DNA of 13,131 nucleotides from a virus (IMGVR_UViG_2778261446_000002:1-13131); one strand, 5' to 3'. Numbered from the stretch's first letter, positions 1 to 5,291 are shown. Made by a program: numbers and translations. Notes: generated from the sequence alone by a model not told the origin.

Positions 1-65
1 CACGGGAATATCTGCGGCAGCAGGCCAGTAATGGGTTAAGTGATAACAGGTGTCTGGAAATATAG
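1..65 (+). CDS. IS2 transposase OrfB/InsD, C-terminal fragment (5' partial)
   Basis: Frame starting at base 3 reads REYLRQQASNGLSDNRCLEI then TAG at 63-65, resembling the IS2 InsD C-terminus from memory. The reading frame is open to the window edge. Confidence 0.6.
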   Translation, partial: REYLRQQASNGLSDNRCLEI

Positions 66-76
66 GGGCAAATCCA
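1..76 (+). mobile_element. IS2-family insertion sequence, right terminus (partial; element continues upstream of the window)
   Basis: Bases 1-76 end in ...GGTTAAGTGATAACAGGTGTCTGGAAATATAGGGGCAAATCCA, matching the IS2 right inverted repeat as I recall it, with a few substitutions. Host dsdC sequence resumes at base 77. Confidence 0.7.
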
Positions 77-580
77 CTGCAACGTGCCGGAATCGATTTG
101 GCGATCTACTTTGATGATGCGCCGTCAGCGCAACTCACTCATCACTTTCTGATGGATGAAGAAATCCTGCCAGTATGTAGCCCGGAATACGCTCAAAGAC
201 ATGCTTTAACCAACACGGTAATTAACCTGTGTCACTGTACGTTGCTCCATGACAGACAGGCATGGAGCAACGACTCCGGTACGGATGAATGGCATAGTTG
301 GGCGCAACATTATGCGGTTAATTTGCCGACATCTTCTGGAATTGGCTTTGATCGTTCTGATTTAGCTGTTATTGCCGCGATGAATCATATTGGGGTGGCG
401 ATGGGAAGAAAACGCCTGGTACAAAAAAGGCTTGCCAGTGGTGAGCTCGTCGCGCCGTTTGGCGATATGACGGTGAAATGCCATCAGCATTATTACATCA
501 CCACATTACCGGGCAGGCAGTGGCCAAAAATTGAAGCGTTTATTACCTGGCTAAGAGAACAGGTAAAAACCACTTCATAA
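77..580 (+). pseudogene. dsdC: dsdC (LysR-type D-serine regulator), 3' fragment truncated by the IS2 insertion; effector-binding domain only
   Basis: Translation LQRAGIDLAIYFDDAPSAQ...ITWLREQVKTTS* looks like the C-terminal half of a LysR-type regulator and matches my recollection of DsdC. The six-frame ORF start at ATG 50 lies inside the IS terminus, so it is not the native start. The N-terminal HTH half is absent from the window. Confidence 0.8.
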
Positions 581-675
581 TGAATAAAACCACGAGTTCC
601 TGGTGTGCCTTATTCGGCCTGCTAGTTCGAATTTAATTTACGGTTTTTATGTGGTTTTAGGGATAAACACAAGGA

Positions 676-690
676 TGGTGTCCCCTGCAG
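676..690 (-). other. attR core: 15 bp identical to the 3' end of tRNA-Arg argW (CTGCAGGGGACACCA on the minus strand)
   Basis: Plus-strand TGGTGTCCCCTGCAG is the reverse complement of the argW 3' terminus ...CTGCAGGGGACACCA. The flanking sequence does not continue the tRNA, so this is the partial duplicate at the prophage/host junction. Confidence 0.6.
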
Positions 691-763
691 ACATCTACTT
701 GAGGCGGCATGGGATTGATTGGAATGGTGTTTTTTAGATGTGAAAAATATTTTACCCGCTATT

Positions 764-964
764 TTACCCATTAGCGCGGCTTAAGAGCTTATTTTTGAAT
801 TCACAATGGTCACGATATAACCATCTTGCTCGCCCGTGGATAACTTTGGCTTTTGGCAGGTCGCCGGACTTAATCCGGTCATAGATGAAGGTTTTACCAA
901 AGCCAGTATCAGCCATGATGAATTTCAAATCAACCAGTGAATCAGGCTGTAGTTCGTGTTGCAT
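764..964 (-). CDS. torI: TorI-type excisionase / recombination directionality factor (66 aa)
   Basis: 66-aa product MQHELQPDSLVDLKFIMADTGFGKTFIYDRIKSGDLPKAKVIHGRARWLYRDHCEFKNKLLSRANG matches TorI of KplE1 as I recall it. SD GGAGAT precedes the ATG, and the gene sits next to the att core. Confidence 0.85.
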   Translation of the reverse strand: MQHELQPDSLVDLKFIMADTGFGKTFIYDRIKSGDLPKAKVIHGRARWLYRDHCEFKNKLLSRANG

Positions 965-1007
965 GAGTGCTATCTCCGAATAGGGAATCGAACCTGCAAA
1001 TCAGGTA

Positions 1008-1030
1008 ATAAAAAACCGCCATCAGGCGGC
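1008..1030 (-). terminator. Rho-independent terminator (minus strand); the stop codon of the upstream small gene lies in the loop
   Basis: Minus-strand CCGCC-TGAT-GGCGG hairpin followed by TTTTTTAT. Confidence 0.6.
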
Positions 1031-1189
1031 TTGGTGTTCTTTCAGTTCTTCAATTCGAATATTGGTTACGTCTGCATGTGCTATCTGCGCCCATATCATC
1101 CAGTGGTCATAGCAGTCGTTGATGTTCTCCGCTTCGATAACTCTGTTGAATGGTTCTCCATTCCATTCACCTGTGACTCGGAAGTGCAT
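1022..1189 (-). CDS. Hypothetical small phage protein (55 aa)
   Basis: ATG at 1189 preceded by GGAGATGATAA; product MHFRVTGEWNGEPFNRVIEAENINDCYDHWMIWAQIAHADVTNIRIEELKEHQAA, ending in the terminator loop. Below the size cut-off of the ORF track. Confidence 0.4.
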   Translation of the reverse strand: MHFRVTGEWNGEPFNRVIEAENINDCYDHWMIWAQIAHADVTNIRIEELKEHQAA

Positions 1190-1200
1190 TTATCATCTCC

Positions 1201-1226
1201 ATAAAACAAAACTCGCCGTAGCGAGT
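1201..1226 (-). terminator. Candidate rho-independent terminator (minus strand)
   Basis: ACTCGC-TACG-GCGAGT hairpin followed on the minus strand by TTTGTTTTAT. It sits between the 63-aa gene and the 55-aa gene. Confidence 0.45.
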
Positions 1227-1269
1227 TCAGATAAAAGAAATCCATCAATTGGTTAGGGTTTTTGTAATT

Positions 1270-1461
1270 CTACGAATTATGTTGTTTTTTAGCTTCAGCT
1301 TTCCATTCATCAAAGGCAGTGTCTTTGTTCATGGTGCTGATATTGATCTTACGGTCAATATCATATACACGCCACTCACCGTTAGGCCTCTCTTCGCATC
1401 TAACTAAGTATGAATTGCCATTAATATCTATGCGTCTGTCTATTTGCATGAACATTTTCAA
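1270..1461 (-). CDS. Hypothetical phage protein (about 61-63 aa)
   Basis: ORF-track ORF. SD GAGGG is 8 nt upstream of a TTG at 1461; in-frame ATGs at 1455 and 1449 are alternatives. Confidence 0.45.
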   Translation of the reverse strand: MKMFMQIDRRIDINGNSYLVRCEERPNGEWRVYDIDRKINISTMNKDTAFDEWKAEAKKQHNS

Positions 1462-1854: not shown

Positions 1855-2413
1855 GGTTAACCTCCTGCGGCGGCTCTGGTAGCGGCATCCAGTGTGACGG
1901 CTCACATACCCCCTCAACACCATTCATGTAAAAGAATTGAAATAACCCTTTACCTTTGTGAAACCCTACCATCTGCTCTTTTGTGTCTGAACAATAAACC
2001 AAAACATCTTCTTCGTTTGGCATTCGCTCACTACAGCTTATCCAACTATCCGGAGTTACCGGAGAGTTGCCCGATAGCTGGTTCAACTTGTAAGTTTGGC
2101 TTACAGGTTCGGCTTTCAGTTCTGCTATGCGCTTTTTTGCTGTTTCCAGCTCATCCAGCAGCGCCAAGACGGTAGCCGGATTGGCTGCGGCGATGAATTC
2201 AGCATTGGCCTGCTGTTCCATTTGGAAATCTTCATCGAAGCCGCTTTCAGGATGCGCTCCTTCAATTCTGCAAATGGGAAGATATCCAACAACGTCACGA
2301 TGAATTAGCGCATCACCAGCATCAAGCCTCTCCTCTCCATATTCTAGCGACCACACACCACACGTTGCTTTCTCTGCCGCCTCACGCAGTGCCTGATAGT
2401 CAATCTTGCTCAC
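1847..2413 (-). CDS. Ead/Ea22-like N-terminal region fused to a DUF551-type C-terminal domain (188 aa)
   Basis: GTG start with strong SD AAGGAGG 7 nt upstream, overlapping the upstream stop (GTGA). C-terminal SHWMPLPEPP is typical of DUF551; N-terminal AANPATVLALLDELE is typical of ead/Ea22-like prophage proteins. Confidence 0.6.
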   Translation of the reverse strand: MSKIDYQALREAAEKATCGVWSLEYGEERLDAGDALIHRDVVGYLPICRIEGAHPESGFDEDFQMEQQANAEFIAAANPATVLALLDELETAKKRIAELKAEPVSQTYKLNQLSGNSPVTPDSWISCSERMPNEEDVLVYCSDTKEQMVGFHKGKGLFQFFYMNGVEGVCEPSHWMPLPEPPQEVNRG

Positions 2414-2892
2414 TGGTCGCCTCCTTTGCGAAGCTGGTCGGCGAACAAACGTACACTAGACGCTTCACTGCGTAGAAACTTAACGGCATAATCAAAACCA
2501 CCTCGTTCTGCGTCGTCTGCTCCGTTGTCGAGGTTATCTGCGTACATCTCTACCCCCTGCGCCCGTACTTCAGCCAGGAAAGCATCGGTAGATGGGGTGT
2601 TAAGTGAAAAGTCCTGTCGGCCTGATTTCAGATACGCAATGGCGATCTTTGTTGCTGCGCATTCGACAGCGAATTTCTCTTTTTCAGCAGCCATCTTCGC
2701 GCACTTGGCCTCAAGGTTATCAATCGTGATTCCAGCAGAACGACACTCCCGCAACGCCGTTTCCAGTTTTGATTCAAGTTCACCGAACTTACGCACCAGA
2801 TATTCAGCGTTTGTTTCGTTAACCTTTAAATCACTTGGGATGCATTTACCTTTCAGAAATCCATCCATCTCAATTAGTGACATTTGTTTCAT
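2410..2892 (-). CDS. Hypothetical Ea22-like coiled-coil protein (about 160 aa)
   Basis: ATG at 2892 ([12 protein letters not shown]...) overlaps the stop of the upstream 54-aa ORF (ATGA). The ORF-track start at 2910 is a GTG 18 nt further up. Confidence 0.55.
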
Positions 2893-3053
2893 TTCTTCCC
2901 ACTCCGCCACATTGCATTCAGATATTTGTTGTCATTAACAGAACCGAAACTATTTCTCTTAAGCAATTCCTCTCTCGATGGCATTGGCTTTACGCGTTGG
3001 CGAATAATCATTTCTGCCGGAAGAATGCCGGGATTGTATGCAAGTCCTCTCAT
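2889..3053 (-). CDS. Hypothetical small protein (54 aa), translationally coupled on both sides
   Basis: ATG at 3053 overlaps the stop of the upstream gene (ATGA) and its own TGA overlaps the ATG of the downstream gene (ATGA). Product [54 protein letters not shown]. Confidence 0.45.
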
Positions 3054-3340
3054 GATTTACTCTCCACGAACTGGTCAACGGCCATGCTAAGTGACACACC
3101 TAAAGTATCGATATGCTGCTGAATATCCTGTAGCGTCCGCGCTTGAGATAACAGAATTTCACGGTTGCATAACTCTTTAACCAGATGCTCAAACTTGCTG
3201 TAATAACCGATACGGCTTAGTGTTTCTTTCCCTGCATTCTCACCTTCTTTGATAATTCCTCTTTCGCTAAGAATCAGGTCGTGTTTGGTTCCGGTAATAA
3301 CGTATTTGCCGAGGTCGATGTTTAGCTTCATTGTTTTCAT
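3050..3340 (-). CDS. Hypothetical phage protein (96 aa)
   Basis: ATG at 3340 ([14 protein letters not shown]...) preceded by GAGG. An alternative ATG at 3358 overlaps the upstream stop. The longer ORF-track version has no RBS. Confidence 0.5.
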
Positions 3341-3350
3341 TGTTAATTCC

Positions 3351-3647
3351 TCAGTCATTACTGATAGCGCCATAGCGTGAGCGGTAATTACGCAGGCGCG
3401 GGTCGATATATTCAGGGAAGTGGGTATATGTGGCTTTGCGGAATGGTCGGATTGATGTCTGGTAAATTCGCTCTCGTTCTTCTTTCTCTGCAAGCCATAT
3501 ACAGTGGCGAAATTCCTTTTCTTCTTTCGTTTCCTGCGGTAGCGACATTATCCGGTCGTAGTTTTTCCTGAATTTATCCAGCACCTCCGATACGGAATTG
3601 CCGGAACAGCGGCGCGCGTCGTCCGCACCATACAGAGGCGCTGGCAT
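3351..3647 (-). CDS. Hypothetical basic phage protein (98 aa)
   Basis: ATG at 3647 with SD AGGAG 7 nt upstream; begins 14 nt after the SSB stop. Confidence 0.6.
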   Translation of the reverse strand: MPAPLYGADDARRCSGNSVSEVLDKFRKNYDRIMSLPQETKEEKEFRHCIWLAEKEERERIYQTSIRPFRKATYTHFPEYIDPRLRNYRSRYGAISND

Positions 3648-3660
3648 GATTTTCTCCTGA

Positions 3661-4176
3661 TTAAATTGCGTGAATAGCGTGACGAGGGAAGGGGAGGGTT
3701 ACTGGCGCAAAAGGTATATCGTCGTCAAACTCCATAGGTGGTTCGCTGTGATTTACCTGCTTCTGAGGCTGCTGTTTTTGTTGCTGACCGTTATTTCGCT
3801 GAGGTGAAGACTGTTCATTGCTTCCTTGCTTGCCACCAAGCATTTGCATGGTTCCACCAACGCCCACGATAACTTCGGTAGTGAACCGATCCTGTCCGCT
3901 TTGATCCTGCCATTTTCTTGTCCGCAATTTTCCTTCAAGATAAACCTCAGAGCCTTTTCGCAGATATTCGCTGGCAATTTCTGCCAGTTTCCCGCTCATT
4001 ACCACACGGTGCCACTCCGTCTGCTCCTTTTGCTCTCCAGTTTGCTTATCACGCCATTGTTCTGACGTAGCAACTATAAGGTTTGCAAATGCCGTTCCTG
4101 ATGGTGAATATCTGATTTCTGGATCATGCCCAAGGCGACCAATAATGATCACCTTATTTACGCCTCTACTTCCCAT
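3661..4176 (-). CDS. ssb: Single-stranded DNA-binding protein (SSB) with a 15-residue extension beyond the conserved DDDIPF tail
   Basis: N-terminal OB-fold region closely parallels E. coli SSB (SRGVNKVI..., [40 protein letters not shown]), followed by a Gln/Gly-rich linker and the acidic motif MEFDDDIPF, then [15 protein letters not shown] before the stop. Confidence 0.9.
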
Positions 4177-4884
4177 TTATGCCGCCTGTTTTAGTTCGTT
4201 AACTCTGATGTTCATTACCTGAACGCATTTAGCCTGCGCATCCTCATTGCCAGCCATTAATTGCCAGTCATGCTGATAACGTTCTATGAGTTTTTTCTTG
4301 TCAGTTTCTGTTGATGCATAATCGCTGAAGTCTTTCAGGATTTGTTCGCAGTCAACCGATGGAGATTTCTGGTTGGTATTTTCTGGTGATGGTTTGTTAT
4401 CTGATGCTGGGATTGCCCAGCCCGGCAGCGATGGAGGGAGCCAGTAAAATCCTGTTCCATCCTTCAGTTTTGCCCTGTGCCACCCCTGCTTTTTATCGGG
4501 AGATGTTTGTGCGAAACCTTCCTCAAGGTTATACAGATACCGACCGATTCCCCACTGAACGGCAGCGCGCTTCATTGCACCGGAACGACCACCTTTGACG
4601 GCTTCTACCTGCGTGTTTTCAGCAGCATCCCATTTGGTTACCCATTCGGAATCAATCTTTATTGATATGCCGCATTCAACGCCGCCGTTGTTGGGAATAT
4701 CGCGGTATTCATTGCGCCATCCTGCTTTGCCACAAACATCGTCAAGGCGTTTCATGATTGCCCGGTTCGTAACATAAGCCAGCACCATAGCCCACACCTT
4801 GCCATCGCGTGTTTTACCGCTTTGCTGTATTCGCCATTCGATATCTTCAGGGCAGAATGGCTCATCGAATTTGTTCAAATCCAT
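4177..4884 (-). CDS. Single-strand annealing recombinase, Rad52/Sak-like (235 aa)
   Basis: Sits immediately upstream of ssb in the position of lambda bet/exo. The motif GGRSGAMKRAAVQWGIGRYLYNL resembles the Rad52-family annealing core. Family assignment is by pattern, not by search. Confidence 0.6.
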   Translation of the reverse strand: MDLNKFDEPFCPEDIEWRIQQSGKTRDGKVWAMVLAYVTNRAIMKRLDDVCGKAGWRNEYRDIPNNGGVECGISIKIDSEWVTKWDAAENTQVEAVKGGRSGAMKRAAVQWGIGRYLYNLEEGFAQTSPDKKQGWHRAKLKDGTGFYWLPPSLPGWAIPASDNKPSPENTNQKSPSVDCEQILKDFSDYASTETDKKKLIERYQHDWQLMAGNEDAQAKCVQVMNIRVNELKQAA

Positions 4885-4892
4885 AATTCACC

Positions 4893-5063
4893 TCAGAATG
4901 GACATGGCCCAAGGAAATAACGCTGGTTTAATACTTCGACTCGGGACAAATTAAGGCATACCCGCATTCCTTCGCGGTCACCATTATGGCGATACCAGAG
5001 AGCTTTTTGCGTGTACATGCGTCTCTGTAACTTGCTCTCCTTCACTGTGGTTGCAAGTGACAT
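4893..5063 (-). CDS. Candidate small ORF (56 aa), overlapping an alternative ORF
   Basis: ATG at 5063 preceded by a strong SD (GAAGGAGATATTC-ATG); stop 9 nt before the annealing-protein start. Overlaps the 4984-5142 ORF in another frame, so both cannot be fully confirmed. Confidence 0.3.
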   Translation of the reverse strand: MSLATTVKESKLQRRMYTQKALWYRHNGDREGMRVCLNLSRVEVLNQRYFLGPCPF

Positions 5064-5142
5064 GAATATCTCCTTCGTTACCGATTAATTCTTTCATCTG
5101 ACGAATGAATTCTTCGTCTGACCAGTTATCTGTAAAACTCAT
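4984..5142 (-). CDS. Candidate small acidic ORF (52 aa), translationally coupled to the kil-like gene
   Basis: ATG at 5142 overlaps the kil-like stop (ATGA). Product MSFTDNWSDEEFIRQMKELIGNEGDIHVTCNHSEGEQVTETHVHAKSSLVSP. Confidence 0.35.
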   Translation of the reverse strand: MSFTDNWSDEEFIRQMKELIGNEGDIHVTCNHSEGEQVTETHVHAKSSLVSP

Positions 5143-5291
5143 TTCCTGCGATACCACGGAATGTTGATCGCTGATTTCATCGCTTTATTTGCTTCAAGCC
5201 ACATTTTGGAATCACCAATAAATCTGGCTATTACTGCTTTGTTCTGTGCAGCACGAAGCATCTGGTGATTAATGACTATTTCATTGCGCAT
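5139..5291 (-). CDS. Kil-like small protein (50 aa), candidate host cell-division inhibitor
   Basis: ATG at 5291 overlaps the cIII-like stop, with SD GGAGG. Product MRNEIVINHQMLRAAQNKAVIARFIGDSKMWLEANKAMKSAINIPWYRRK. The FIGD.KM core resembles my recollection of lambda Kil, and the position right after cIII fits. Confidence 0.45.
   Translation of the reverse strand: MRNEIVINHQMLRAAQNKAVIARFIGDSKMWLEANKAMKSAINIPWYRRK

Follow-up and report, generated by a model that had tools for sequence, protein, structure and literature searches.

What three small, closely packed genes contribute to a lambdoid prophage, and whether they help it against bacterial defences, is the question raised by positions 2889-3647 of IMGVR_UViG_2778261446_000002:1-13131, a 13,131-nucleotide (nt) stretch of viral DNA referred to here as the window. 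The initial annotation described them as tightly coupled genes of unknown function that match no family that could be named. The open reading frames (ORFs), of 98, 96 and 54 amino acids (aa) on the minus strand, are present as described, as both direct reading of the sequence and the ORF listing bear out. The statements on family and function, however, have to be withdrawn: the products match PF11043 (Abc2), PF17399 (DUF5405) and PF10930 (DUF2737) respectively and are annotated in RefSeq, the first is assigned to a RecBCD modifier that is characterised both biochemically and structurally, and the other two belong to established Pfam families.

The first gene (ORF 1, 3351-3647, minus strand, 98 aa) matches Pfam PF11043 (Anti-RecBCD_p2) with 203.6 bits against a cut-off of 25 (E 4e-61), residues 1-98 lying on profile positions 1-97, and phrog_656, 'abc2 anti-RecBCD', at E 2e-56. 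Against the P22 Abc2 structure (PDB 8b1t_A) the alignment again covers residues 1-98, with E 1.8e-55 and about 92% identity, and on these comparisons we identify ORF 1 as Abc2. P22 Abc2 has an extended helical form and attaches to RecC at its Chi-recognition ('inactivated helicase') domains (eLife 2022, PMC9836394); in the cryo-electron microscopy model the RecC-binding helical region spans residues 3-66, and Pro68 engages the host protein PpiB, with which Abc2 co-purifies through that residue (PMC9836394). Abc2-bound RecBCD largely keeps its helicase and nuclease activity and loses its response to Chi, and the same authors propose, as a model, that RecA loading is blocked and single-stranded DNA is handed to Erf in consequence (PMC9836394). 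Within residues 1-66 the window protein carries just three substitutions relative to P22 Abc2 (Pro11Ala, Leu32Arg and Ala65Ser), and in the 8b1t_A alignment the IRPFRK motif with Pro68 is identical between the two. Because identity reaches 92% and the key residues are conserved, we infer that the window protein acts as its P22 counterpart does, binding RecC and abolishing the Chi response, together with the adjacent Erf and SSB, whose genes (4177-4884 and 3661-4176) lie directly upstream in the same operon and give abc2 the context of a Rec module. RecBCD would thereby be redirected from the destruction of phage ends and the loading of RecA toward the annealing pathway of the phage's own Erf and SSB.

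The second gene (ORF 2, 3050-3340, minus strand, 96 aa) scores only marginally against PF17399 (DUF5405), at 23.7 bits for a cut-off of 21.6. The assignment is backed by a match to phrog_154 (E 1e-31), by tblastn alignments at 32-38% identity that cover more than 80% of the length, with orf83 of P2-like phages and of 186 as the counterpart, by the name given by the Prokaryotic Genome Annotation Pipeline (PGAP) and by fold matches in BFVD; by tblastn the gene is also 96-97% identical to Sf6 gp24 and to the homologue in vB_EcoP-720R6. We accordingly assign ORF 2 to the DUF5405 proteins, the Orf83 family of phages P2 and 186. The third (ORF 3, 2889-3053, minus strand, 54 aa) matches PF10930 (DUF2737) with 103.8 bits against a cut-off of 25, residues 1-52 lying on profile positions 1-52 of 53, and phrog_1117 at E 2e-38, which identifies it at the level of sequence as a DUF2737 protein of the family of P22 orf56, HK97 gp38, HK620 HkaI and Sf6 gp23. 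Nothing that we found contradicts any of the three assignments.

Could the two shorter frames simply be chance ORFs? Frames of this size are not in themselves beyond chance, as 4 kb of this region holds 47 ORFs of at least 30 aa on its two strands, many of them spurious and of similar length, and the case for real genes therefore depends on their conservation and not on the existence of the ORFs. We took 158 related loci from IMG/VR and compared the unique sequences with the window, counting polymorphic sites by codon position and estimating the ratio of nonsynonymous to synonymous substitution rates (dN/dS; NG86, ratio of means). Codon positions 1/2/3 held 39/36/57 polymorphic sites in abc2, 14/7/35 in the DUF5405 gene and 16/11/31 in the DUF2737 gene, an excess at the third position, with dN/dS of 0.22, 0.11 and 0.26 respectively, and all three genes are under purifying selection. 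Loss of the reading frames in related prophages, which the initial annotation had named as grounds for refutation, is not what is seen; the frames are kept, and internal stops occur in none of 59 unique DUF5405 sequences and in 2 of 85 unique DUF2737 sequences. Curated Pfam matches above threshold for both families, homologues in unrelated phages with identities as low as about 40% and a confidently predicted DUF5405 fold argue in the same direction, as does the breadth of the DUF5405 profile: searched against 1.84 billion representatives, it matches 924 clusters (50% identity) at E <=1e-3. That either frame is no gene is thus refuted as far as sequence analysis reaches, and we consider it extremely improbable. 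The earlier view of genuine, tightly packed and probably translationally coupled genes is upheld; that they are real rests on a family hidden Markov model match for each, hundreds of homologues and the dN/dS values. The 54-aa frame falls below a listing threshold of 60 aa, hence its absence from the ORF track, which had been remarked on.

The junctions between the genes are equally compact. Both ATGA stop/start overlaps that had been reported are found on direct reading of the minus strand: at 3050-3053, within TCATGA (3055-3050), the DUF2737 ATG (3053-3051) overlaps the DUF5405 TGA (3052-3050), and at 2889-2892, within AATGAA (2893-2888), the ATG (2892-2890) of the next gene, of the EaE/Oad2 family, overlaps the DUF2737 TGA (2891-2889). 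The abc2 and DUF5405 genes are separated by a gap of 10 nt (3341-3350, minus strand), which contains most of a GAGGA Shine-Dalgarno (SD) motif. SD-like motifs stand 6-8 nt before all three starts: AGGAG at 3658-3654 for abc2, GAGGA at 3352-3348 for the DUF5405 gene and GGAG at 3065-3062 for the DUF2737 gene. For DUF5405 there are two candidate starts, the ATG at 3340 (96 aa) used in phage annotations and a second ATG at 3331 (93 aa) used by PGAP, and the SD spacing is better for the former; the ORF listing stretches this frame to an upstream TTG at 3493.

Upstream of the trio on the minus strand lie the phage SSB gene at 3661-4176 (PF00436, E 1.4e-37; phrog_44) and, at 4177-4884, the gene for the Erf/Rad52-type single-strand annealing protein (PF04098, E 5.6e-25; phrog_1097, E 4e-129). 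Downstream are the EaE/Oad2-family gene (2410-2892, minus strand, 160 aa; phrog_614, E 2e-50), translationally coupled to the DUF2737 gene, and a gene at 1847-2413 whose product has Pfam and PHROG matches as an Ead/Ea22+DUF551 protein. The rest of the window encodes N, a LexA-type repressor, CII, O, a primase-helicase and NinB, and from these and the flanking genes it follows that the setting of the trio is the early region of a lambdoid prophage; the reported position in the delayed-early leftward operon, with ssb on one side and the Ea22-like genes on the other, likewise holds. Neither promoter-like nor terminator-like sites were found on the minus strand within 2400-4900, and the Rfam scan made alongside gave no matches. 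The order erf, ssb, abc2, DUF5405, DUF2737, EaE/Oad2-like and Ea22-like would then be read from a single transcript with translational coupling. Very probably the block comprises the last, promoter-distal part of the Rec module together with the opening genes of the 'ea' accessory region in the PL operon of an Escherichia coli prophage of the Sf6/ES18/HK446 type.

These gene identities and their arrangement are already known. Positions 2400-4900 match the chromosomes of E. coli S163-2 and TUM9754 at 100% identity, and in the identical chromosome stretch PGAP names the products 'phage anti-RecBCD protein', 'DUF5405 family protein' (start 3331) and 'DUF2737 family protein'; the annotations by PGAP and of HK446 gp28/gp27 show the same 4-nt overlap between the DUF2737 gene and the next. 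The trio recurs at 95-97% DNA identity in HK446 (gp30-gp28), Sf6 (genes 25-23), vB_EcoP-720R6 and the PhiR12 series, and in diverged form in ES18 (gp46-gp44). Sf6 and HK446 share abc2/DUF5405/DUF2737 with identical junctions, and Sf6 also has erf-ssb upstream. Sf6 differs, however, in an extra gene 26 between ssb and abc2 and in an unrelated gp22 after DUF2737, and HK446 in carrying gp31 in place of ssb and in its downstream product, Oad2, which is 51% identical to that of the window. P22 (NC_002371, 26449-26923) resembles the window in having abc2, a 10-nt gap, the DUF2737 gene orf56 and an overlapping EaE-family gene, with Abc2 92% and the DUF2737 protein about 74% identical, but has abc1 instead of ssb upstream of abc2 and no DUF5405 gene; its EaE is weakly similar to the product of window 2410-2892.

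Comparison of these loci shows that DUF5405 is an optional, precisely bounded cassette between abc2 and DUF2737, since spacing and sequence at the junction are the same with or without it. The last Abc2 codon is 14 from the next start whether DUF5405 or DUF2737 follows. The abc2 spacer, the left boundary of the cassette, reads TGAGGAATTAACAATG in the window and TGAGGAATTTACCATGAGAGG in phages that lack the cassette; the junction is TGAGGAATTTACC-ATGAGAGG without it and TGAGGAATTAACA-ATG...TCATGAGAGG with it. Among 80 IMG/VR loci retrieved with DUF2737, Abc2 was immediately upstream in 73 and DUF5405 present in 6. From 80 loci retrieved with DUF5405, 78 were counted, all of them with DUF5405 directly upstream of DUF2737 and 77 with Abc2 upstream, and the DUF5405/DUF2737 junction was identical (tblastn offset 0) in 85 of 86 related loci. 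DUF2737 thus usually comes directly after abc2, though the link is not obligate. An overlapping EaE-family gene follows DUF2737 in most of the 80 loci, as consistently as abc2 precedes it, and the synteny of the window DUF2737 gene is typical downstream and, except for the interposed DUF5405, upstream. Longer database 'fusions' of ORF 2 or ORF 3 were traced to mis-called starts or deletion junctions and were rejected as domain fusions.

The DUF5405 product gave a confident AlphaFold2 model (34-sequence alignment; predicted local distance difference test, pLDDT, 89.9), in which four antiparallel strands (residues 6-10, 13-17, 22-29 and 39-47) are followed by two helices (50-64 and 70-95), a beta-meander plus a helical hairpin. 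In BFVD the model matches DUF5405 proteins at template modelling (TM) scores of 0.75-0.86 and, at TM up to 0.86, uncharacterised proteins of N4-like, T4-like, Providencia, Bacillus, Lactobacillus and Cellulophaga phages; among solved structures, Foldseek returned nothing below E 0.19 and hence no PDB analogue. Nearly all relatives are 85-100 aa long and stand alone; no informative domain fusion turned up among them, nor an informative second domain in the long ones. In a set of 72 diverse members conservation is confined to hydrophobic positions in the strands, the GKNxGxE loop of a hairpin and a GYY motif, which, together with the stand-alone form, suggests a binding protein rather than an enzyme. 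In P2-like phages the gene stands between orf82 and initiator A. A T4-like phage has it next to gp46/47-like nuclease and clamp genes, behind the gp46-like nuclease subunit; in a Hafnia phage it lies on the downstream side of ssb, and in an N4-like phage it comes after the dUTPase gene. The family would appear, as these cases have it, to be a very widespread one seated in the replication and recombination operons of unrelated phages. The Orf83 proteins of P2 and 186 share with the window protein 32-38% identity, the predicted BFVD fold class and the character of a small early-operon gene that overlaps its neighbours; P2 Orf83 differs in lying outside any Rec module, between the TraR/DksA-like orf82 and initiator A. 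An anti-Avs protein called 'ORF83' in two preprints was considered and set aside, being an unrelated Smf/DprA-like protein of phage DruSM1.

The DUF2737 protein, which has matches in 694 phage records, is small and basic, with 11 Lys/Arg to 4 Asp/Glu and a net charge of about +7 by our own count from the translation. Its AlphaFold2 model contains four short helices at pLDDT 63, a confidence too low for a fold search, and the family keeps an invariant core, P-x-P-[ST]-R-E-E-L-x-K-R-N-S-F-x5-N-K-Y-L-N. Given that it is basic, poorly modelled and carries a conserved motif, it is most likely a largely disordered peptide that folds on a host or phage partner. A variant, phrog_4684, occurs in virulent Guernseyvirinae (Jerseyvirus and Kagunavirus; wksl3 L005 3926-4096 and SZH-1 L006 3941-4099), sharing the C-terminal REEL-KRNSF...NKYLN half with the DUF2737 proteins of temperate phages and differing in the N-terminal half; its neighbours there are small early genes, all in PHROGs of unknown function except one without a match. 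Three DUF2737 homologues (P0087, P0095 and P0222) carry short internal tandem duplications that span PMPSREEL / REELMKRNSF. In two loci (L040, 2281-4165, and L042, 2003-4165) the Rec module consists of a RecT-like protein of 303 aa with proteins of 162 and 104 aa and lacks Abc2, and in L042 DUF5405 is present as well. From these loci it follows that DUF2737 and DUF5405 mark the Rec/ea boundary and are not tied specifically to Abc2.

The suggestion that accessory blocks such as this one are a home of anti-defence functions proved right for the neighbours of the two DUF genes. A July 2026 preprint (bioRxiv 10.64898/2026.07.10.737580) reports that in the HK446 locus gp33 triggers OLD and that gp27, named Oad2 and of the EaE family, directly inhibits the P2 OLD abortive-infection tRNase. 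The gp33 protein of HK75/HK446 was sufficient for OLD toxicity and is proposed to be a new manipulator of RecBCD, and a 54%-identical HK75 homologue of Oad2 did not inhibit OLD; gp28 (DUF2737) and gp29 (DUF5405), which lie between abc2 and oad2 in HK446, are not mentioned (10.64898/2026.07.10.737580). The product of window 2410-2892 shares with HK446 Oad2 an overall identity of 51%, a nearly identical stretch of some 65 N-terminal residues and the C-terminal motif FADQLRKGG, although the middle is divergent; both genes lie outside the trio, each coupled to the DUF2737 gene directly before it. A 57-aa ORF at 4984-5157 on the minus strand of the window, between kil and erf, is a gp33 homologue that PGAP did not annotate in the identical stretch of TUM9754.

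Our best guess, held with modest confidence as a working model, is that DUF5405 and DUF2737 act on host DNA-end processing or on its immune surveillance, and not as obligate subunits of Abc2. They would be expressed alongside Abc2 early in lytic growth, as small binding proteins without enzymatic activity. A competing idea for DUF2737 is that of a dedicated Abc2 cofactor: as a third 'Abc' component it would bind to Abc2, PpiB or RecBCD and be required for full hijacking. Co-occurrence speaks for it: Abc2 (at least 80% coverage) is found in 225 phage records and full-length DUF2737 in 223, the per-group counts of the two match (51 in Stx2a and 15 in Stx1a phages), the directly upstream Abc2 of 73 of the 80 loci keeps a constant 10-nt spacer, and the same adjacency is seen in P22. 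The two proteins do not, however, vary together, with P22 showing 92% identity for Abc2 and 74% for DUF2737 and Stx2 phages 62% and 96%, and their divergence is uncorrelated over 153 loci (r = 0.04). An identical DUF2737 also follows the RecT-type modules of L040 and L042 that lack Abc2, the motif occurs in Guernseyvirinae, where in the two genomes examined the roughly 4 kb to each side contain no Abc2 homologue, and Abc2 by itself reportedly modifies RecBCD both in vivo and in vitro (Murphy's work). We therefore regard a cofactor role as improbable. For DUF5405 a replication or recombination accessory, for example a PC4-like binder of single-stranded DNA or a partner of an initiator or recombination protein, has a better claim but is still rather unlikely. 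It would fit the proximity to orf82 and initiator A in P2-like phages, to gp46/47-like nuclease and clamp genes in the T4-like phage and to ssb in the Hafnia phage, and the model's four antiparallel strands followed by helices resemble PC4-type folds, with the T5 PC4-like protein 4bg7 among the Foldseek matches. A PC4-like fold was rejected all the same, as no significant structural or profile similarity to PC4/Whirly-type proteins emerged. A further hint comes from the database label 'replication initiation protein', which is attached to many RefSeq DUF5405/phrog_154 records and to phiKT H6VU99 in BFVD. For DUF5405 we found no Pfam initiator domain, solved-structure analogue or conserved catalytic residues that would bear the label out, nor could an experimental basis be traced in the literature, and it appears to be a propagated annotation.

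The third alternative, that DUF5405 and/or DUF2737 are stand-alone counter-defence factors against a host or prophage immune system, perhaps one that guards RecBCD (OLD, retron Ec48 and Gabija being possible examples), is tentative at best, somewhat ahead of the replication accessory. Both are small stand-alone proteins situated between Abc2 and an EaE/Oad2-family gene, in a locus whose HK446 counterpart holds an OLD trigger and an OLD inhibitor, and the window has homologues of both gp27 and gp33; DUF5405, moreover, is present or absent as a cassette, and a DUF5405 gene was placed by Silas et al. among accessory genes. Yet PADLOC, which covers defence and not anti-defence, matched neither DUF protein and indeed none of the three genes. 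Broader searches were similarly unproductive: Pfam, PHROG, NCBIfam and PDB yielded no characterised anti-defence protein homologous to either DUF protein, NCBIfam held no family for any of the four proteins searched, and a sequence search of solved structures with the two returned nothing at E <=10. Several further points tell against this alternative and also against our working model of binders acting on end processing or its surveillance. Silas et al. included a P2-type DUF5405 gene in their screen of 200 accessory genes and mention no phenotype for it in the main text, and an HK446 genomic-library screen for OLD inhibitors recovered gp27 only (10.64898/2026.07.10.737580). The dN/dS of 0.11 for DUF5405 argues against a gene caught in an arms race and, like the spread of this family over widely differing phages, fits less well with counter-defence genes that evolve fast. 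Against the working model there is also the literature, in which searches by family names and identifiers found no paper that discusses DUF5405 or DUF2737. For Abc2, the step in which DNA is handed to Erf is itself still a model (PMC9836394). Taken together, the indirect data on an anti-defence role of the two proteins are weakly negative. The proposal that DUF2737 and/or DUF5405 are host-directed factors of this recombination and anti-defence hotspot, perhaps a second modulator of the RecBCD pathway or an inhibitor of immunity that senses RecBCD inactivation, is likewise speculative. Were it true, DUF2737 would contact its target through the invariant REEL-x-KRNSF...NKYLN peptide, which it has in common with virulent Guernseyvirinae.

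As a discovery these genes have little value, their families and arrangement having been present in the sequenced P22, Sf6, ES18 and HK446 genomes for about two decades and annotated in RefSeq. The practical value lies in triage. An Abc2 label flags a prophage as one predicted to manipulate RecBCD, and hence as a possible trigger of defences that guard RecBCD, such as OLD and retrons. DUF2737 (694 phage records) and DUF5405 (924 clusters) are very common, strongly conserved small phage proteins, and the finding in July 2026 of an OLD trigger and an OLD inhibitor in the HK446 locus makes them reasonable and cheap candidates for functional study; the remaining interest lies solely in the roles of these two proteins in a newly tractable locus. 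The left end of the prophage (window 1-1300; L165 1-2300) appears decayed, with a truncated LysR substrate-binding fragment at window 50-580. In TUM9754 an IS3 transposase adjoins the truncated LysR fragment; the left end also has a torI/xis-like gene, and the annotated stretch contains no integrase.

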